In this document: piece after piece, positions 4,262-52,543 of the stretch
How positions within the stretch are numbered: position 1 is the stretch's first letter
Layout: each line of letters starts with the position of its first letter
NCBI GenBank assembly: GCA_964561115.1
Contig: CAZLOE010000003.1
Span: 2,691-66,690, forward strand
DNA: 64,000 nucleotides
Source: an uncultured Actinomycetota bacterium
GTDB taxonomy: Bacteria > Actinomycetota > Humimicrobiia > Humimicrobiales > Humimicrobiaceae
Direction: 5' to 3'
Notes under the pieces: generated by a model
Seen by the model: the letters and a program-made list of their open reading frames with translations, nothing else
Database searches by the model: none
Told to the model about the DNA's origin: nothing
Translations under genes and position numbers: made by a program

Positions 4262-4837
4262 TTATTGCTTGGGACCCACATCAAGACTTAGTGTAGTCTC
4301 ACCCTCGTACTCCGAGACTATAACAGATACCTCCAGGGTGCCGTCATTTGCTGTGACATAATAATATTTGTCACCATTGCTTGTGGTTGTTGAGTTATAG
4401 TCAATAGTCCAGCCCGCAGTAGGAAATTGGTACATATACCAATCATACACTTTCTTTCCCGGGTCAGCGGTCTCAAAACCTACCATAAAATATTTGTTAC
4501 CATCCTCTTCCCAGGTCATGGTAGATGTAGGTGTCATATCAGGATATAAGGGAACAACCTTCGGGAATCCCTCAGGCAGTTCTGTACTTAATCCCCAGGA
4601 TGTCTCGCCTTCCTCTGTAGTAATGGTGACCTCATCTCCTGATATATCTACTTCGGCCTGACCGCCTTCACCTTCAATACCCTCTTCTATCGCCGATTCT
4701 ATTGCCTCCTCTGAAATTGATTCTGCGATCCTTTCTCCTACTTTAGAACATCCGCCGGCAGATAATAACAGAAAGGCCGCCAAACTCATTATCAATACCA
4801 GCATTATTGTTTTTTTCATCATAGATCTCCTTGCCAT
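4262..4837 (-). CDS. acidic secreted lipoprotein, function unknown
   Basis: 191 aa. It has a signal peptide and an LSAGGC lipobox, then a Glu-rich region. Confidence 0.7.
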   Translation of the reverse strand: MARRSMMKKTIMLVLIMSLAAFLLLSAGGCSKVGERIAESISEEAIESAIEEGIEGEGGQAEVDISGDEVTITTEEGETSWGLSTELPEGFPKVVPLYPDMTPTSTMTWEEDGNKYFMVGFETADPGKKVYDWYMYQFPTAGWTIDYNSTTTSNGDKYYYVTANDGTLEVSVIVSEYEGETTLSLDVGPKQ

Positions 4838-4949
4838 TAATAGTTATTATTAAGACCACCTCTAATTTTACTAAATTAATATATTTTATAAAACCTCAAC
4901 CTTAGAAAAAACAACAAAATCAAATAAAATTTCCTGGCAAAAAAAGTTT

Positions 4950-6767
4950 TTAATTCTGCCTGTCAATATCTAATTTATAAAAACTCATAAAAGCTTCGCC
5001 CGGTATCTCAACTCTTCCTATCTTTTTCATTCTCTTTTTCCCTGCCTTCTGCTTTTGAAGCACCTTTCTTTTTCTTGTCACATCTCCGCCGTAAAGCCCT
5101 GAAGTGACATCCTTTCTATATGGAGCGACCCTCTCCTTGGCAATCACTCTCTTGCCAATTGCCGCCTGTATTGCTACTTCAAAATTATGCCTTGGTATCA
5201 ACTTCCTTAATTTCTGAGTTATTTCCCTTCCCAGATAGTAGGATTTGTCCTTATGGACTATAATGGAAAGTTCATCGACTTTTTCTCCGGCTACCAGTAT
5301 ATCCAGCTTCACCAGTTCAGAAGGCCTGTATTCAAGAAACCCATAATCCAGTGAGGCAAATCCGGAAGTCACTGACTTCAGCAGATTAAAAAAATCTACA
5401 ATTATCTCAGAAAGCGGTACAGCGTATTTTATCTCGACTCTTTCCAGCGAGATATACTGCATATCCTTGAAACTGCCCCTTTTCTGATTTACCAGCTTCA
5501 TTACTTCTCCGATATAATCCTTGGGGGTGATTATGGTAGCTTCTACATACGGCTCTTCTATTTTTAATATTTTTTCCTGAACAGGAAAATCAGAAGGCCT
5601 CTTTACCTCTATTACCGAATTATCACTCTTTGTTATTCTGTAAACTACGGTAGGGGCTGATGTCAGCAGCTTAAGACCATATTCTCTCTCAAGCCTTTCT
5701 TTTATGATTTCCATATGAAGCAGTCCTAAAAAGCCGCATCTAAAACCAAAACCAAGGGCACTGGATACTTCAGGGACAAAATCCAGAGAAGAATCGCTCA
5801 GTGAAAGTTTACCCAGAGCATCTTTCAGATTCTCGTAATCCCCTCCCTCAAGAACAAACAGGCCGGAGTAGACCATTGGTTTGGGTTTTCTATAACCCGG
5901 GAGGTTTACTGCAGCAGGATCTTTTTTAGAAGTAACAGTATCGCCGACCATAATATTCCCTACTTCCTTGATCCCTGTAATAATATATCCTACTTCACCC
6001 GCGGCAAGGATTTCTTTTTTTATCATATCGGGCCCGAATATTCCCACTTCCTCGACTTCACTATCAAAGCCTTCTCCCATAAATTTGATCCTATCACCCA
6101 TTTTTATGCATCCGTTTACCACTCTTATAAGCACTACCACGCCCCTGTAAGAATTATACTGGGAATCAAAGATCAATGCCTGAAGCGGGTCATCGGGGTT
6201 TCCTTCCGGATGTGGTATATCGCTCACTATTCTTTCCAGTATTCCCCCGATTCCAAAGCCGGTCTTTGCGCTGACTCTAAGTATTTTTTCTTCCTTAATA
6301 CCGAGGACGCTTCCCAGTTCCATTGAGACCTCATCAATCCTTGCACTTTTAAGGTCAATCTTGTTTATGACCGGAATGATCTCCAGATCATTATCAACTG
6401 CCATATAAACATTGGCAAGAGTCTGCGCCTGTATCCCCTGGGTAGCATCAACCACCAGTATGGCACCTTCACAGGCAGCCAGGCTCCTGGAAACTTCATA
6501 GCTGAAATCAACATGGCCGGGCGTATCTATCAGGTTAAATATATACTGCCTGCCGTCTGTCCCACTGTTATAAAGGACCCTGACCGAATGAGCCTTTATG
6601 GTAATACCCCTCTCTCTTTCAAGCTCCATATCATCCAGGAATTGATCCAGCATCTCTCTACGGCTTACCGTTTCAGTTATCTCTAAAACCCTATCAGCCA
6701 ACGTAGATTTGCCATGGTCTATATGAGCGATTATTGAAAAATTTCTTATTAATTTGTTATCCGTCAT
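4950..6767 (-). CDS. lepA: translation elongation factor 4 (LepA)
   Basis: 605 aa. GTPase G1 AHIDHGKST, DTPGHVDF, and the length typical of LepA. Confidence 0.95.
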   Translation of the reverse strand: MTDNKLIRNFSIIAHIDHGKSTLADRVLEITETVSRREMLDQFLDDMELERERGITIKAHSVRVLYNSGTDGRQYIFNLIDTPGHVDFSYEVSRSLAACEGAILVVDATQGIQAQTLANVYMAVDNDLEIIPVINKIDLKSARIDEVSMELGSVLGIKEEKILRVSAKTGFGIGGILERIVSDIPHPEGNPDDPLQALIFDSQYNSYRGVVVLIRVVNGCIKMGDRIKFMGEGFDSEVEEVGIFGPDMIKKEILAAGEVGYIITGIKEVGNIMVGDTVTSKKDPAAVNLPGYRKPKPMVYSGLFVLEGGDYENLKDALGKLSLSDSSLDFVPEVSSALGFGFRCGFLGLLHMEIIKERLEREYGLKLLTSAPTVVYRITKSDNSVIEVKRPSDFPVQEKILKIEEPYVEATIITPKDYIGEVMKLVNQKRGSFKDMQYISLERVEIKYAVPLSEIIVDFFNLLKSVTSGFASLDYGFLEYRPSELVKLDILVAGEKVDELSIIVHKDKSYYLGREITQKLRKLIPRHNFEVAIQAAIGKRVIAKERVAPYRKDVTSGLYGGDVTRKRKVLQKQKAGKKRMKKIGRVEIPGEAFMSFYKLDIDRQN

Positions 6768-6796
6768 AAAATAATAAAATAACTTATTTTAAAAGC

Positions 6797-8371
6797 TTAT
6801 TTATTCTTTCTGAATTTTTTAAATAAATTTACTACAAATTTTATCTCTTCCATTTTAAATAAAAATGTGCAGGCTATATAAATACCGGCACTGACAATAA
6901 TTGCCGAAAGCAAGAGCAGTATAAGCGGCCACAGACCCTGATAGGCATAAGCTTCAAGCCACTCCCATAAAAAATACAGTACAGCACTCATCACAGCCAC
7001 TGCAGCAAGGATCTTGCCGTATGATACAAATATCCTCCTCCCCCCGAAACTTCCGATCTTTTTTCTCAGTATGATTATCAGGATCACCACATTACACAGT
7101 GCGACCAGAGTTGTGGAAAGAGCAAGCCCGCTTACATCCATATATTTTATCAAAACCCAGTCAAGAATAAGGTTGACGACTATTGAGATACTTGCGACCT
7201 TAAGAGGCGTTTTTACATTTTTAAATGCATAGAAGACTCTGTTTAGGATCATAAGCAGGCCAAAGAATAAAAGACCCATGCTGTGAAATATCAAAATAAA
7301 TGCTACCTTTCTTGTATCTCCGGCAGTGAAATTATAATGCTCAAACAGGACTCTTATAATAGGATAGCTTAAGATCATCATACCTGCAGCTGCCGGAATC
7401 ATTATATATCCTATTCCCCTGATACCCAGGGAAAAGCTTTCTTTTATCCCCCTGACATCGTCACCGGCTGCCTGCCTGGATATTAAAGGATACAGCACGG
7501 TCACAATTGCTACGGTAAACACACCGAGCGGCAGATTTGCGACTCTCCATGATAAGGTCAGAGCAGTGGTATTTCCACCTCCAAGATTTAATGCAAAAAA
7601 ATTATCCACACTGTTATTCAGTTGTACCGCACCTAAACTTAAAAGGATGGGCAGCATAAGAGAAAATATTTCTCTTACTCCTTTATGTTTGAAATCGATC
7701 TTAAACCTGTATTTTAAAGGTGATGCTCTAAGCTGGGGTATCTGTATTATAAGATGGAATATTGATCCTATCATTACACCGACAGCCATACTGTATATAC
7801 CCATACGGTTAAAAAGTAAGACCACAAAACCTATGGTAATTATATTCATCACAAAAGGAGCAATCGAGGGTATGGTAAAAATATTATGTGAGTTTAATAT
7901 TCCCGTAGCCAGTCCGGACATAGACAGCAGAACGAGGGAGAATATCATAATTCTATTCATGACTATAAATTTATATACATCCATCTGGTTATTTGCAATT
8001 CTTGTAAGAATAGAACCTATTTCAGGAGAAAAAATAAATATAACAATAGAGATGACAAAAAAAACTACTGCCATTATATTTATGACCGAATTTACAAAAA
8101 TCCTTAAATCATTTTTCCTGTCATTCTTCAAATATGCAGAATAAATGGGTATAAACGCTGCGACTATCAGACTTTCTGCAATTAGTATCCTGAAAAGATT
8201 GGGAATAAAATAAGCCCAGGTAAAAGCATCAGTCTCATAGGTGATGCCAAAATAGCCAGCCATTATCTGATCTCTTACCAGTCCGGATATTTTTGAAAGC
8301 AGAATAGCTATTACCACCATGAATGTGGCACTAAAAATCCTTTTTCTTGACAGTAAATAGTCTTCATCCAT
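6797..8371 (-). CDS. murJ: lipid II flippase MurJ/MviN
   Basis: 524 aa polytopic membrane protein with a MurJ-like N-terminus (KISGLVRDQIMAGYFG). Confidence 0.85.
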   Translation of the reverse strand: MDEDYLLSRKRIFSATFMVVIAILLSKISGLVRDQIMAGYFGITYETDAFTWAYFIPNLFRILIAESLIVAAFIPIYSAYLKNDRKNDLRIFVNSVINIMAVVFFVISIVIFIFSPEIGSILTRIANNQMDVYKFIVMNRIMIFSLVLLSMSGLATGILNSHNIFTIPSIAPFVMNIITIGFVVLLFNRMGIYSMAVGVMIGSIFHLIIQIPQLRASPLKYRFKIDFKHKGVREIFSLMLPILLSLGAVQLNNSVDNFFALNLGGGNTTALTLSWRVANLPLGVFTVAIVTVLYPLISRQAAGDDVRGIKESFSLGIRGIGYIMIPAAAGMMILSYPIIRVLFEHYNFTAGDTRKVAFILIFHSMGLLFFGLLMILNRVFYAFKNVKTPLKVASISIVVNLILDWVLIKYMDVSGLALSTTLVALCNVVILIIILRKKIGSFGGRRIFVSYGKILAAVAVMSAVLYFLWEWLEAYAYQGLWPLILLLLSAIIVSAGIYIACTFLFKMEEIKFVVNLFKKFRKNK

Positions 8372-45744: not shown

Positions 45745-45867
45745 TGGTGCGAGAGAGGGGACTTGGTCTTTCGTCTCGCTTCGCTCGCTGCAGAGCCGCG
45801 GACTCCCTCGTCTGCGACTCAGTCCGTCCATTCAAGTCCCGTAAAACATGCACTTATGGCATGTTTT
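45745..45867 (-). ncRNA. tRNA-3'-end-linked structured element, copy A
   Basis: 45745-45765 is an exact copy of tRNA-Leu positions 45910-45930. A conserved scaffold (TCTTTCGTCTC...TCGCTGCAGAG...TCCCTC...TCAGTCCG) follows. The copy ends with a 9-bp hairpin (45843-45867). Strand is undetermined. Confidence 0.6.
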
Positions 45868-45909
45868 CCACATTAACTTATAAATCCACTTTAAAAATTA
45901 TATCTTTTC

Positions 45910-45996
45910 TGGTGCGAGAGAGGGGACTTGAACCCCTACAGGTGTTACCCCACTAGATCCTAAGTCTAGCGCGTCTGCCAATTCCGCCACTCTCGC
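45910..45996 (-). tRNA. tRNA-Leu (anticodon TAG), encoded CCA
   Basis: 87 nt cloverleaf with acceptor GCGAGAG/CTCTCGC, anticodon loop CTTAGGA, a long variable arm and a 3' CCA. Confidence 0.9.
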
Positions 45997-46092: not shown

Positions 46093-46211
46093 TGGCACGC
46101 CTGGAGGGATTCGTTCTTTCGTCTCGCTTTGCTCGCTGCAGAGACGCGAGCTCCCTCATCTTCGATTCAGTCCGCTCTTTCGAATCCTGAAAACATGCCA
46201 CCGGCATGTTT
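46093..46211 (-). ncRNA. tRNA-3'-end-linked structured element, copy B
   Basis: 46093-46113 is an exact copy of tRNA-Arg(TCG) positions 46257-46277. The same conserved scaffold follows, ending in a hairpin at 46191-46211. Confidence 0.6.
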
Positions 46212-46256
46212 CCCCTGCCTACCTTGAACGTACCTATCGTTTTATATATATAAATA

Positions 46257-46333
46257 TGGCACGCCTGGAGGGATTCGAACCCCCGACGCACGGATTCGAA
46301 GTCCGACGCTCTATCCACCTGAGCTACAGGCGC
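46257..46333 (-). tRNA. tRNA-Arg (anticodon TCG), encoded CCA
   Basis: 77 nt with anticodon loop CTTCGAA and T-loop TTCGAAT. Confidence 0.8.
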
Positions 46334-47105: not shown

Positions 47106-47182
47106 TGGAGCGGGAAACGGGATTCGAACCCGCGACCCTCAGCTTGGAAGGCTGACGCTCTAGCCAACTGAGCTATTCCCGC
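47106..47182 (-). tRNA. tRNA-Gly (anticodon TCC), encoded CCA
   Basis: Acceptor GCGGGAA and anticodon loop CTTCCAA. Confidence 0.9.
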
Positions 47183-47187
47183 TCAAA

Positions 47188-49518: not shown

Positions 49519-49657
49519 GTCTTTTCTTTCTATTCATTTATTAATATTTTATAGAACTTCTTAAAATTAAAAAACTCTCTATTTAATGAACCAGGGTTTT
49601 TAATTCACTAATTATATAATTTTAATAAAAAATAAAAAATGTTTTATGACCAAGCGT

Positions 49658-51136
49658 TTAAATTGTGGAGATAAATTTCTTTTTCTCTTTTAGGCATAAA
49701 TGCTTAATAGTTCTCCTTGCATGTGCCATACACATGGGTACACCACCACCGGGACAAACCCATTGACCAGTCATATAAAAGTTTCTTAGTTTAGGCAACT
49801 CCCTGGGCAGGAACTTTCCAAACAATTTAACTGTGGGGAGCCAACCCTGATAGGAACCCTGCCAGTTGCCTGTATATCTCTCCCAGGTAACCGGAGTAGC
49901 TATATCCGTTACTTCGATCTGCCTCCTTATACCGGGCAGTTTCTTTTCCAGTTTTCGAAGGCATATACTTAAGACCTTAGCTTTTTCCGCATTGTATTTT
50001 CTTTTATTTTTATGAATCGATTTCCAGTAATCATAATCGGATTCTATCTGGATTTTTATAACACTTTTTCCCTTAGGAGCAAAAGCGGGATCGTGACAGA
50101 AATGAAAATAACCCATCCATTCCCATTTTCTGCCGGCAATCAGAACCGGGTCATCAAGCTTAAAATTATTGATCTCCACTTTACCTGATAAATCCCGGTC
50201 GACCCCCAGACTTATGGATATGATGGGCGGCCATAAGCTGGGTTTTTGATACATTTTCTTAATCTGTGGCGTCAGGTACTTTCCCTGCAGCATTCTGTAT
50301 AATGTCAATCTGCCGTCACAGGCTGAAACAACTATATCTGCATAGATCTTTTTACCCTTTTCTGTCTCTATTCCCACTATCGTATTATTTCTTATGAGTA
50401 TCCTTTTAACTCTTTGATTATAATTGATCCTTCCTCCCAGAGATTTATAACGTTTTTCAACTGCACGGGCAAAATGAAGTGAACCGCCCCAGGGGTAGCC
50501 ACCCTCATGATTATGAAAATATGCCAGTGGCATAACCACCATCAATGCCGGCATGTTTTTAACCGGAAACATCTGAAAAAGCATTTCCCTTAAATCTTTA
50601 TTTTTAAACATTCCGAGAAAATCTTCTATCCTGGTATTTTTAAGTTTTATAAACGACGGCATGAACGGCAGCATTTTCAGAATATCACGCAGGCCAAAAT
50701 TACCAAAATCCGCATCCATCGGCGGCTTGAACCCTGTATAAAAACGAACTATACAGATCAATTTTCTAATTGATCTTTCTTCATCAGGAAATAATCTTAG
50801 AAGTTCACTTTCAAATTTATCCAGGTCGGTATAGACAGTAAGGCTTTTACCGCCAATATCAATTTTTCGAAACCGTTCCGTATAATAAAATTTTATGTTA
50901 TCTGCAATACCCAGCTCTTTAAAAAGGCCGTAAATGGAGCTGCTCTTATTCGATCCCAGTACCCAGTGCAGGCAGTGGTCAAAAAGGTACTCTCCGCGTC
51001 TCCACGAGGTACAGACACCGCCGGGAATATTATTCATCTCGTAAATTTCTGAATTATAACCATTCATCTGCGCATAACATCCCGCTGAAAGACCTGATAT
51101 TCCAGCTCCGATAATACACATTTTTTTCATAGTCAA
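49658..51136 (-). CDS. FAD-dependent oxidoreductase, phytoene desaturase (CrtI/CrtN-like) family
   Basis: 492 aa. N-terminal dinucleotide-binding motif IIGAGISGLSAG. The overall length and C-terminal motifs fit amine-oxidase/CrtI-like enzymes. Confidence 0.65.
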   Translation of the reverse strand: MTMKKMCIIGAGISGLSAGCYAQMNGYNSEIYEMNNIPGGVCTSWRRGEYLFDHCLHWVLGSNKSSSIYGLFKELGIADNIKFYYTERFRKIDIGGKSLTVYTDLDKFESELLRLFPDEERSIRKLICIVRFYTGFKPPMDADFGNFGLRDILKMLPFMPSFIKLKNTRIEDFLGMFKNKDLREMLFQMFPVKNMPALMVVMPLAYFHNHEGGYPWGGSLHFARAVEKRYKSLGGRINYNQRVKRILIRNNTIVGIETEKGKKIYADIVVSACDGRLTLYRMLQGKYLTPQIKKMYQKPSLWPPIISISLGVDRDLSGKVEINNFKLDDPVLIAGRKWEWMGYFHFCHDPAFAPKGKSVIKIQIESDYDYWKSIHKNKRKYNAEKAKVLSICLRKLEKKLPGIRRQIEVTDIATPVTWERYTGNWQGSYQGWLPTVKLFGKFLPRELPKLRNFYMTGQWVCPGGGVPMCMAHARRTIKHLCLKEKKKFISTI

Positions 51137-51233
51137 ATTTCCTTTATCATAATCTAAATATTAATATGCAATCTCCGGCCACTTGTATATAGATCTTAAC
51201 CAAGCCAATAAAATATATCACAAATTCATCCTT

Positions 51234-52016
51234 TTATCTTAACTCTTCTTTAAGTACCTGATAGAACCTTCCTCTTGCATAATGCTCAACCCAGGGGTGG
51301 TGTCCGCACTTTTTGAGCAAAATAAAACGAAAATCCTTAAGGACTCCGGAGAGAGGTTCCCTTACTCCTTCAGCAGGATGGGGATCATAATCACCGTGTA
51401 GAGCAACAACCGGGCATTTTATTTGTGCACCCAGTTTTAAAAGCTTGCCGCTGTCTCTAAGTCTCTCTGCATCCTTCCATACATACTCAAAAACATTAAA
51501 CTGGCACTCCAGTATCTCACTCTTGCAGGATACAGGGCTATAAGAGTCAGCCTTTGATATCAACTCTCCAAACCTGCACATAATAGTATCTTTATCTGCC
51601 GTATCTGGATCACTCAATTTTCTCATAAGGTCCAGGGCTTCCGATCTCTCTTTATCGCTGAAACGGCTTAATCTTGTCTCAGTTATTTGCGCAGCATATT
51701 TTTTATCAAATACTGCGCTTCCTACTATTATGAGTTTTTTTATCAGTGAAGGATATCTTGCGGTAAGAATAAAGCCGAGCATCGCACCCCACGACCAGCC
51801 GATCAGCACCATAGGTAAATCCCCATTTTCCTCAAGGATCCTTTGTAATTCCTGTACCTGACCTTCAAGTGATGCTGCTGTCTGAAGCGGTTCCAGAATG
51901 CCACGATCAGTGGACAGCTCCCTTGCTACCGGAGCCATTTCCCCCGGTGCACCAGGCCCGCCATGCAATACAGCAATACTAAAAGGCGGCCCCCCATATT
52001 TTCTTGGATTTTCCAT
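51234..52016 (-). CDS. alpha/beta hydrolase (esterase/lipase fold)
   Basis: 260 aa with the nucleophile elbow GWSWG and later His/Asp residues. Confidence 0.7.
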   Translation of the reverse strand: MENPRKYGGPPFSIAVLHGGPGAPGEMAPVARELSTDRGILEPLQTAASLEGQVQELQRILEENGDLPMVLIGWSWGAMLGFILTARYPSLIKKLIIVGSAVFDKKYAAQITETRLSRFSDKERSEALDLMRKLSDPDTADKDTIMCRFGELISKADSYSPVSCKSEILECQFNVFEYVWKDAERLRDSGKLLKLGAQIKCPVVALHGDYDPHPAEGVREPLSGVLKDFRFILLKKCGHHPWVEHYARGRFYQVLKEELR

Positions 52017-52033: not shown

Positions 52034-52155
52034 TGGTGGAGGCGGCGGGAATCGTTCTTTCGTCTCCCTCCGGTCGCTGCAGAGACGCAGACTCCCTCGC
52101 TAAAGCTCAGTCCGTCTTTTCGATTCCTGGAAAACATGGATCCACCATGTTTTCC
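52034..52155 (-). ncRNA. tRNA-3'-end-linked structured element, copy C (tmRNA-associated)
   Basis: 52034-52054 is an exact copy of tmRNA 3' end 52196-52216. The same conserved scaffold follows, ending in an 11-bp hairpin at 52129-52155. Confidence 0.6.
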
Positions 52156-52195
52156 TTACATAGTATCAGGTTACCTGATAACCAGTATAGATATC

Positions 52196-52543
52196 TGGTG
52201 GAGGCGGCGGGAATCGAACCCGCGTCCGAAGATATTGACACCTAGATATCTACAAGCTTATTCCACATTTTAATCTTACTTTTTCACTCGCATGGACGCG
52301 ATTAAAAAAGCCAGCCCGCATAAAATTTCCCCCGGTACTGCTGCAGGCATATCATACCGGAGTATCCTGCTAACCGGCGCCTGTCGAAAAGCACAGGAGA
52401 CCTTTCGCAGACGTAGCAGCTTAAATTAAGCTGCTAATGCTAATTTATTATTAGCGTTTATTTATAGTTCAGTTATTTACGAGTTCTGATACTCGACTTG
52501 CAATCCAAGCTCAACCTATCCCCGTCGAATCCAAGTCGCCCCC
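52196..52543 (-). ncRNA. ssrA: transfer-messenger RNA (tmRNA)
   Basis: The 5' end GGGGGCGACUUGGAUUCGACGGGG pairs with the 3' end ...CGCCUCCACCA, including a G3-U70 pair. T-arm GCGGGUUCGAUUCCCGC. Tag reading frame GCU AAU AAU AAA UUA GCA UUA GCA GCU UAA (ANNKLALAA). It lies immediately downstream of smpB. Confidence 0.9.

Follow-up and report, generated by a model that had tools for sequence, protein, structure and literature searches.

The 3' ends of tRNA and transfer-messenger RNA (tmRNA) genes are classical landing pads for islands and prophages, whose specificity has always been credited to integrases. Among other systems, IS110 and IS605 elements produce little or no target duplication, the CTX-phage attP and the integron attC are recombination sites made of folded single-stranded DNA (ssDNA), and R2 elements are cotranscribed with their 28S target and insert by target-primed reverse transcription. 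At the R2 junction, host sequence joins the helix of a ribozyme (PMC3414825). Here we describe a family of protein-less elements of ~140 nucleotides (nt) that insert in the T-loop of tRNA and tmRNA genes, as exemplified by a copy (copy C) next to the tmRNA gene, ssrA, in a 64,000-nt stretch of an uncultured Actinomycetota genome (contig CAZLOE010000003.1; hereafter, the window). We give about an even chance to the interpretation that copy C is a member of a noncoding, nonautonomous, guide-directed mobile family that targets tRNA and tmRNA genes and moves via RNA. No description of such an element was found in the literature searched.

Site-specific insertion downstream of ssrA and of tRNA genes

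The plus-strand sequence TGGTGGAGGCGGCGGGAATCG has two exact sites in the window, 52034-52054 and 52196-52216; no third match was found in the 64 kb with up to three mismatches allowed, and 100 shuffles gave no match at all. The second site is formed by the last 21 nt of ssrA (tag peptide ANNKLALAA by ARAGORN), that is, positions 56 to 76 of the tRNA-like domain, and is the proximal copy of a duplication. Thus, the first site is an exact copy of the tmRNA's last 21 nt (CGATTCCCGCCGCCTCCACCA on the RNA strand), as the initial annotation had proposed. This distal copy lies 162 nt downstream of ssrA, and the two copies enclose a noncoding element of 141 nt. The initial annotation had also supposed that the same element is present elsewhere in the window, and the repeat finder and alignments indeed revealed a family of three copies, all on the minus strand: A after tRNA-Leu(tag), B after tRNA-Arg(tcg), and C after the tmRNA. 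A covariance model retrieves just these three (128 to 137 bits).

Read on the tRNA strand, the parts follow each other in the order CCA end of the gene, AT-rich spacer (43 to 45 nt), hairpin P0, guide (7 to 8 nt), core (~66 nt, with a hexamer inside it), and 21-nt tail (Table 1). P0 has the pattern AAAACAUGcc...ggCAUGUUUU in the window copies. The guide has the reverse-complement sequence of the first bases of the tail and depends on the target, the pairs in the window being GGGACUUG/CAAGUCCC, AGGAUUCG/CGAAUCC, and AGGAAUCG/CGAUUCC. The spacer keeps a length of 43 to 45 nt in 93 of 165 copies, although its sequence varies. The 7-bp inverted repeat that had been noted in the spacer of copy C (TATCAGG-TTA-CCTGATA) is present in the window sequence and is peculiar to this copy; since the spacers of the family have no fold of their own (mean z = 0.1), we regard it as incidental and rejected a spacer hairpin as a family feature.

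TABLE 1 Positions in the window of the element copies, their parts, and the genes and sites discussed
Feature	Position	Strand	Remarks
ssrA (tmRNA gene)	52196-52543	-	Target of copy C; ARAGORN; Rfam RF00023, 221 bits
Copy C, whole	52034-52195	-	After tmRNA
Copy C, spacer	52154-52195	-	AT-rich, variable in sequence; carries 7-bp inverted repeat, 52164-52180
Copy C, hairpin P0	52131-52153	-	AAAACAUGG-UGGAU-CCAUGUUUU; covariation in 6/8 pairs; column-coordinate map
Copy C, guide	52121-52128	-	AGGAAUCG; complementary to CGAUUCC(C), first 7 to 8 nt of the duplicated target
Copy C, core	52055-52120	-	Conserved
Copy C, P2/P3 arm of core	52089-52117	-	Followed by GCG junction
Copy C, K98-M131 pair of core	52085, 52055	-	K98 (52085) paired with M131 (52055), last base of the element
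Copy C, hexamer of core	52077-52082	-	CUGCAG, self-complementary
Copy C, P5 arm of core	52064-52076	-	Flanked by tandem G.A
Copy C, junction strand of core	52056-52063	-	ACGAAAGA
Copy C, distal tail	52034-52054	-	CGAUUCCCGCCGCCUCCACCA; target-site duplication; exact repeat; filled versus empty sites
Copy B, whole	46093-46256	-	After tRNA-Arg(tcg), 46257-46333
Copy B, P0	46190-46212	-
Copy B, guide	46181-46188	-
Copy B, core	46114-46180	-	Hexamer at 46136-46141
Copy B, tail	46093-46113	-
Copy A, whole	45745-45909	-	After tRNA-Leu(tag), 45910-45996
Copy A, P0	45843-45867	-
Copy A, guide	45833-45840	-
Copy A, core	45766-45832	-	Hexamer at 45788-45793
Copy A, tail	45745-45765	-
Empty site	47183-47187	-	tRNA-Pro(tgg) ...CCA, TTTGA, tRNA-Gly; versus L058 and L068
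Alpha/beta hydrolase gene	51234-52016		Next to copy C
FAD amine-oxidase/CrtI-type oxidoreductase gene	49658-51136

Comparison of empty and filled orthologous sites (loci from related genomes and metagenomes are labeled with L-numbers) shows a simple insertion accompanied by a 21-nt target duplication, specific in both site and orientation. The junction between tRNA-Pro(tgg) and tRNA-Gly that is empty in the window is filled in L058, where it reads Pro-CCA, spacer-P0-guide-core, CAAATCCTCTCACCCTGACCA, TTTCGG, Gly, and L068 carries a decayed version of this L058-type filled site. Similarly, ssrA is empty in L100 and filled in the window, L068, L005 (two units), L012, L066 (three units), and L079. 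On insertion, the 3' end of the element becomes joined to C56 in the T-loop and target positions 56 to 76 are duplicated, leaving an intact gene upstream and a 21-nt tail behind the element. The 5' edge of the duplication is sharp, between positions 55 and 56: identity ends at C56 in 83/83 first units, the proximal copy being preceded by GGTT and the distal one by AGAA or AGAC. The tail is exact in all three window copies and in ~85 to 90% of the other copies, and the mutations seen in distal tails are spread over the part pairing with the guide (helix P1, below) and the acceptor part roughly by length, which suggests that there is no selection on the distal tail. The family as a whole shows an excess of 3 to 29 extra identical bases past A76, which may reflect a variable right edge of the duplication, 3'-truncated second units, or assembler k-mer ends, all of which fit. 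In copy B, identity extends 12 nt past the CCA (ATTTATATATA, one mismatch; 46093-46125 versus 46245-46277).

A scan of species-representative genomes with the core motif returned 118 loci with ~120 true copies, and a metagenome scan with a different motif added ~150, bringing the total to ~270; a scan of IMG/VR gave four chance matches and no element. The loci of the genome scan are almost all from metagenome-assembled genomes (MAGs) of uncultured Actinomycetota (labeled Humimicrobiaceae, "Candidatus Humimicrobium," and "Candidatus Hydromicrobium"), with several copies per MAG. Nearly every copy is preceded, ~115 nt upstream and on its own strand, by a tRNA or tmRNA gene, whose last 21 nt are repeated at the end of the copy. 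Insertions occur at more than 20 tRNA species (Trp, four Ser, three Leu, three Pro, three Arg, Asp, Lys[ttt], Ala[ggc], Glu[ctc], Gln, Tyr, and Met) and the tmRNA. Occupancy is high at Trp (19/20), Asp (16/17), and Leu(cag) (13/13) and variable at most target tRNAs, such as Arg(tct) (7/14), Pro(tgg) (5/12), and Ala(ggc) (7/20). Filled sites carry C-R-A-N-U-C-C at positions 56 to 62, matching the invariant GGA..U.G of the guide, and tRNAs with other T arms (Val, Phe, Glu-ttc, Lys-ctt, His, and Cys) are filled in 0 to 1 of 6 to 17 cases. The tRNA-Gly(tcc) gene of the window (47106-47182) has a permissive T arm (CGAATCCC), yet 0/12 of its sites are occupied across loci; thus, something beyond the match to the 7- to 8-nt guide must affect insertion or retention.

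Tandem arrays of two or three units with a period of 159 to 167 nt are common. In some arrays the distal tails are decayed, and decayed and deleted copies also occur, showing that the family erodes through point mutations and deletions. A large number of contigs break off within the element or after exactly 55 or 127 nt of a second unit, lengths explained by assembler k-mer sizes; at L009, L085, L094, L011, and L062, contig ends or runs of N fall at 55 or 127 nt of a second identical unit. Tandem arrays are collapsed in those assemblies, which fragments the MAGs at tRNA genes.

These results support the initial annotation in placing at the tmRNA 3' end a small element that is complete in itself and not the border of a large island: as it had stated, no further copy of the 21-mer exists near 49600, and no integrase was found in or near the copies. 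Its alternatives for the nature of the element, "autonomous" or "remnant," did not hold. There is no open reading frame (ORF) within the 141 nt and no recurrent neighbor gene, and the copies are intact, conserved in structure, and of recent spread over many targets. The initial annotation had missed the guide inside the element, the RNA-like conserved fold, and the recurrence of the target-site duplication at more than 20 tRNA genes.

Guide pairing, retargeting, and a conserved fold

The guide is complementary to target positions 56 to 62/63 and covaries with the target across copies (alignment columns 53-135 and 55-133), and in copy C it forms with the start of the target (the 3' half of the T-loop plus the T-stem) the helix P1. 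Cores, in contrast to guides, are not tied to a target: two cores differ by a median of 11 edits when they share a target and of 12 when they do not; 83 pairs of copies from different tRNAs show no more than one difference between their cores; and a single core variant occurs at Trp, Asp, three Ser, Glu, Leu(gag), Pro(cgg), Arg(acg), and the tmRNA. The presence of near-identical cores at ten or more targets indicates that retargeting is frequent. The origin of the two pairing partners is evident from their mismatches. T-loop position 59 of both tails is mismatched to the guide in L060, L068 (at ssrA), and L114, where the two tails are identical to each other, and in L027, L054, L078, and L085 only the distal tail deviates and the guide matches the functional tRNA. 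Thus, the tails derive from the target, and the guide is carried by the element.

These observations bear on the explanation that the copies are leftover attL/attR scars, or attP-only miniatures, of former integrase-borne islands at tRNA and tmRNA genes. Williams reportedly recognized, in 2002 and 2003, direct repeats of the tRNA 3' segment starting from the T-loop as the signature of integrases with a T-loop crossover, and the repeat from the T-loop to the 3' end seen here has this classical form. The slot downstream of ssrA is variable, at two loci 2.7 kb of cargo separates a tail from the next P0, and a longer, displaced ssrA 3' fragment is found upstream of the element in L195 (see below). 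Nevertheless, integrases are lacking in and near ~270 copies and the element is lacking in IMG/VR, and a protein-binding arm would not be expected to show the covariation with variable loops that is seen in the core hairpins. Moreover, a fixed attP would create chimeric tRNAs when one core, with zero to one differences, is joined to ten or more tails, and both tails match the local tRNA even where the guide mismatches it. A target-site duplication combined with an element-borne guide fits this pattern, and we consider island scars to be largely refuted and very improbable.

Mutual information over 93 distinct copies selects only Watson-Crick partners, which make up P0, P1 (guide and tail, 7 to 8 bp), P2, P3, P5, and the lone pair K98-M131. 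P2 (RGAC/GUCY) has A-U in 46 copies and G-C in 43, with a compensated swap in copy B (GAGC/GCUC); P5 has A-U in 45, G-C in 38, and C-G in 6; and K98-M131, which involves the last base of the element, is G-C in 50 and U-A in 42, with one exception. The complete structure of 31 pairs has 96.3% of its cells paired, against 84% in shuffles and 31 to 46% when the partners are slid by one to three columns as a control, and 19 of the 31 pairs show double changes. G-A...G-A flanks P3 as well as P5 and could give rise to tandem sheared pairs. The strands at the junctions (GAAA, GCG, and ACGAAAGA) are near-invariant; two of them belonged to the search motifs, and matches found by the model only show occasional single changes in these strands. 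The border of element and target thus coincides exactly with the end of P1, the guide-target helix, where it stacks on the K98-M131 pair. No window copy matched Rfam 15 at the gathering threshold or at E ≤ 10, apart from tRNA, tmRNA, and chance matches.

The hexamer within the core reads CUGCAG in ~240 copies and UACGUG or UACGUA in 28 (e.g., L108, L094, L001:660-793, and L084:2120-2239). Both forms are self-complementary, the UACGUG form with the help of G.U pairs, and the variants have no compensating change elsewhere in the element, which points to pairing between two molecules. The hexamer is a candidate site of RNA-RNA dimerization.

Copy B lies between tRNA-Arg(tcg) and tRNA-Lys, the latter beginning 15 nt beyond its tail, and the copies of L058 and L068 lie 6 nt ahead of tRNA-Gly; no promoter or terminator was predicted within any of these three copies. 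Judging from this position inside tRNA operons, the element must be transcribed, in the sense orientation, within tRNA precursors. The comparisons thus indicate a conserved fold and cotranscription with the tRNA. The downstream tRNAs depend on read-through, so P0 is not an efficient terminator; the possibility that it is a strong intrinsic terminator, which the scan also did not flag, was rejected.

Such obligatory cotranscription, along with the strong conservation of core sequence and structure across diverged genomes, the distal tails that still equal the tRNA in most copies, and the high occupancy at Trp, Asp, and Leu(cag), would be in line with a structured RNA in tRNA 3' trailers that benefits the host, in processing or stability, as a decoy for toxins or integrases, or as a spare 3' piece, its spread being secondary. 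However, presence and absence at orthologous sites differ among close relatives, and tandem arrays, decayed copies, and internal deletions occur. The distribution of distal-tail mutations in proportion to the lengths of the parts hints at a lack of selection on the tail, and the uncoupling of core phylogeny from target is the pattern of a selfish repeat. A primary role in the host is therefore improbable in our estimation.

A possible route of movement through RNA

We suggest that the element probably moves via its cotranscribed RNA with the help of an enzyme encoded elsewhere. In this scheme, the tRNA 3' trailer transcript, with spacer, P0, guide, core, and tail, would fold into a conserved three-way structure and perhaps dimerize through the self-complementary hexamer, the RNA serving both as recognition module and as transposition intermediate. 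A separately encoded enzyme, most simply a reverse transcriptase (RT) with a nicking activity, would act in a target-primed manner. The guide would set the 3' end of the element at 55|56, with up to 10 nt of pairing to the intact T-loop if the invariant AA is counted; the bottom strand would be nicked opposite 55|56, and the target's own 56-76 strand would prime copying of the element RNA. Cutting of the top (second) strand at or just past position 76, followed by fill-in synthesis, would then yield the 21-nt duplication. The scheme would account for the target-derived tails, the element-inherited guide, the younger tRNA-proximal insertions in arrays, and the variable 5' end.

Several points weigh against this reading. 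Neither an RT nor any other candidate enzyme is linked to any copy. Cotranscription is deduced from operon position, and the folding energies of single sequences are unremarkable (z = -1 to -2). The strand that folds can be called with moderate confidence: G.U outnumbers A.C by 77 to 38, with 39 of the G.U coming from one pair (69-87), without which the two are equal (38 versus 37), so the call rests on this pair, the tandem G.A motifs, and UACGUG. Truncated copies lack 3' parts, whereas target-primed reverse transcription usually leaves 5' truncations, and at least one truncated copy (L098) is a plain deletion. Finally, guides differ among copies with identical cores, which calls for rapid compensatory change or for a retemplating that lies outside the model.

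The near balance of G.U and A.C outside one pair, by which an RNA-specific fold is not proven, also suits an element acting as folded ssDNA, by analogy with the CTX-phage and integron sites. Here, the guide-tail stem would mimic a duplex target for a host tyrosine recombinase or strand transferase, and replication would resolve the product. Inverted and direct target copies flanking a structured "loop" of ~66 nt, the absence of an encoded enzyme, the CTX-like tandem arrays, and the insertion of a stem-loop-targeting type of group II intron beside P0 would all be compatible with this. Single-strand exchange at one site, however, gives no 21-nt duplication with both copies derived from the target, and a P1 stem of 7 to 8 bp lacks the length to accommodate recombinase-binding sites in pairs. 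RNA is the better fit for the tandem G.A motifs and for the UACGUG palindrome, which depends on G.U, and the element would be transcribed in any case, given its operon position. On balance, we view the ssDNA mechanism as unlikely.

Within the guide-directed reading, it is tentatively possible, though we hold it to be doubtful as a whole, that the conserved core is a new functional RNA, a ribozyme or a ribonucleoprotein subunit, whose guide selects the T-loop of any tRNA or tmRNA gene or transcript. Strand joining would then take place at the end of the guide-target helix in a reprogrammable manner, the target being kept by duplication of its 3' end, perhaps with the RNA acting as a dimer. By eye, hammerhead, hepatitis delta virus (HDV)-like, and hairpin ribozymes, group I and II cores, and the K-turn gave no fit, despite the G.A pairs. 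Models of the hammerhead, HDV-like, twister, twister-sister, pistol, hatchet, and hairpin ribozymes matched none of the three window copies in cmscan at E ≤ 10.

If the guide-directed mechanism is correct, it would represent a new kind of nucleic acid-guided mobile element in bacteria and provide a compact, naturally retargetable insertion module together with a new class of structured RNA. Without any protein of its own and with only 140 nt, the element reaches more than 20 tRNA genes and ssrA, using a short base-pairing guide that can evolve and a duplication by which the target is spared. The element also accounts for the breakage of MAGs at tRNA genes in this lineage, and it implies that duplicated tRNA 3' ends are not automatically island boundaries.

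Comparison with described systems and the surroundings of the copies

Each of the known families that we considered fails at least one of the defining features tested, and there is a substantial chance that the guide-directed mechanism is new in kind. Islands and prophages with T-loop-crossover tyrosine integrases also insert in the 3' part of tRNA and tmRNA genes, leave the gene intact with a direct repeat from the T-loop to the 3' end, and form arrays at one gene. The present element differs in its lack of an integrase and cargo, its 140-nt size, its internal guide and folded core, and a repeat that is target derived at more than 20 targets and not a fixed copy of attP. The IMEX elements and integron attC likewise depend on enzymes encoded elsewhere, form tandem arrays, and have inverted and direct target-like segments that pair across a loop of ~70 to 90 nt. 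Unlike in these, the target is the tRNA T-arm instead of dif or attI, the insertion carries a 21-nt duplication, and in place of a ~28-bp dif-like site for two recombinase monomers there is a 7- to 8-bp stem matching the T-arm.

Short interspersed nuclear elements (SINEs) and R2-type non-long terminal repeat retroelements resemble the element in being noncoding or site specific, in cotranscription with a host RNA gene, in having downstream target sequence at the 3' end of the transcript, and in their flanking target duplication. Here, filled and empty sites document the flanking duplication, and the operon position without a promoter of its own indicates transcription with the host RNA gene. 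In contrast to SINEs and R2, the element is bacterial, its 21-nt duplication has one sharp edge, truncations remove its 3' and not its 5' end, it has no known ribozyme motif, and no RT partner was found in a search limited to the surroundings of the copies. Group II introns and IStrons share with it an internal guide that pairs with the flank of the insertion point (exon-binding and intron-binding sites in the introns), a single covarying pair at the last nucleotide (gamma-gamma' in the introns), and a host gene that stays functional. It has, however, no GUGYG end, domain V/VI, or intron-encoded protein, is ~10 times smaller, pairs its guide with the downstream flank over 7 to 8 bp, and saves the gene by duplication and not by splicing.

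The bridge RNA of IS110 and the TnpB omega-RNA of IS200/IS605 are also structured noncoding RNAs, encoded at an end of their element, with segments matching target or flank. No recombinase or TnpB is linked to the present element, and its 21-nt tail is a target duplication and not a guide, for which reason a TnpB/Cas12-type scaffold with a 3' guide was rejected. It also departs from the PATEs of IS200/IS605 in its 21-nt duplication, its one simple hairpin (P0) in place of subterminal hairpins on both sides, and the lack of IS605- or HEARO-type matches in Rfam. Miniature inverted-repeat transposable elements (MITEs), REP/REPIN, Correia, and Nezha elements are comparably short, protein-less, multicopy, intergenic, and polymorphic among strains. 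Unlike MITEs, the element has strict target and orientation specificity, a guide, and a duplication of 21 nt instead of 2 to 10 nt. It lacks the terminal inverted repeats of DDE-type MITEs, the variable, AT-rich left end having no inverted-repeat match to the right end, ...GAGACGAAAGAM.

With regard to the gene neighborhood, the alpha/beta hydrolase and CrtI-type oxidoreductase genes previously noted at 49658-52016 were confirmed, with the hydrolase start codon 17 nt past the tail of copy C; the SmpB gene lies on the other side of ssrA. The order smpB-ssrA-[variable]-murI-rph-tRNA cluster is kept in relatives. In the slot between ssrA and murI, the place of the pair is taken by a DUF4143-type ATPase gene on the other strand in L068 (3684-4913) and by a methyltransferase-like ORF in L100 (800-1668), and L005 has ~1 kb of other sequence without the pair; in L058 the pair is beside murI and not beside ssrA. 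The comparison with relatives that had been proposed earlier thus shows the pair to be variably present, and the element is found at ssrA in the pair-less L068, L005, L012, L066, and L079; neither of the two refuting conditions named in the initial annotation came true. The presence or absence of the element is independent of the genes in the slot. We infer that the pair is accessory and not cargo of the element, as no link between the two was seen and the slot is a generally variable one; annotating it as island cargo is unwarranted.

Clustering of neighbor ORFs within 2.5 kb of the ~270 copies yielded no integrase or recurrent recombinase. It recovered housekeeping synteny, and the largest cluster is an artifact of translating the element itself. 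A scan for RT motifs that covered these neighborhoods of the copies found none except in an unrelated group II intron in L090.

A large serine recombinase (YVRVSS motif, Zn ribbon, ~520 to 550 amino acids) ends at or inside the 5' part of tRNA-Leu(cag) at five loci (L072:3210-4871 on the minus strand, L133:706-2346, L046:301-1861, L238, and L197). It is specific to the tRNA-Leu(cag) locus and not family-wide. In L050, a resolvase-like fragment (6722-7012) abuts the tail of the tRNA-Leu(gag) element. The recombinases at the Leu loci may belong to another integrated element that uses Leu tRNA loci.

In L069 (56-2740) and L050 (4396-7035), ~2.7 kb of unrelated genes lie between one tail and the next P0. 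The cargo comprises an AAA/DUF4143 ATPase and a HicB-like protein in the former and lipoprotein-like ORFs and the resolvase fragment in the latter, indicating that the spacer position can hold cargo or that the tails are usable by other elements. In L195 (10650-10720), a lone ssrA 3' fragment containing the T stem's 5' strand (GTGGGGTTCGATTCCCGCCGCCTCCACCA) occurs upstream of the element without a tmRNA body; it has the appearance of a classical island's displaced att site, downstream of which the mini element lies.

The group II intron of L090 (4021-5893; GTGCG...CCTAC), with split RT/maturase ORFs (4414-5820), sits 6 nt downstream of P0, inside the guide of the tRNA-Pro(cgg) element, which suggests that P0 is recognized as a stem-loop target by such introns.

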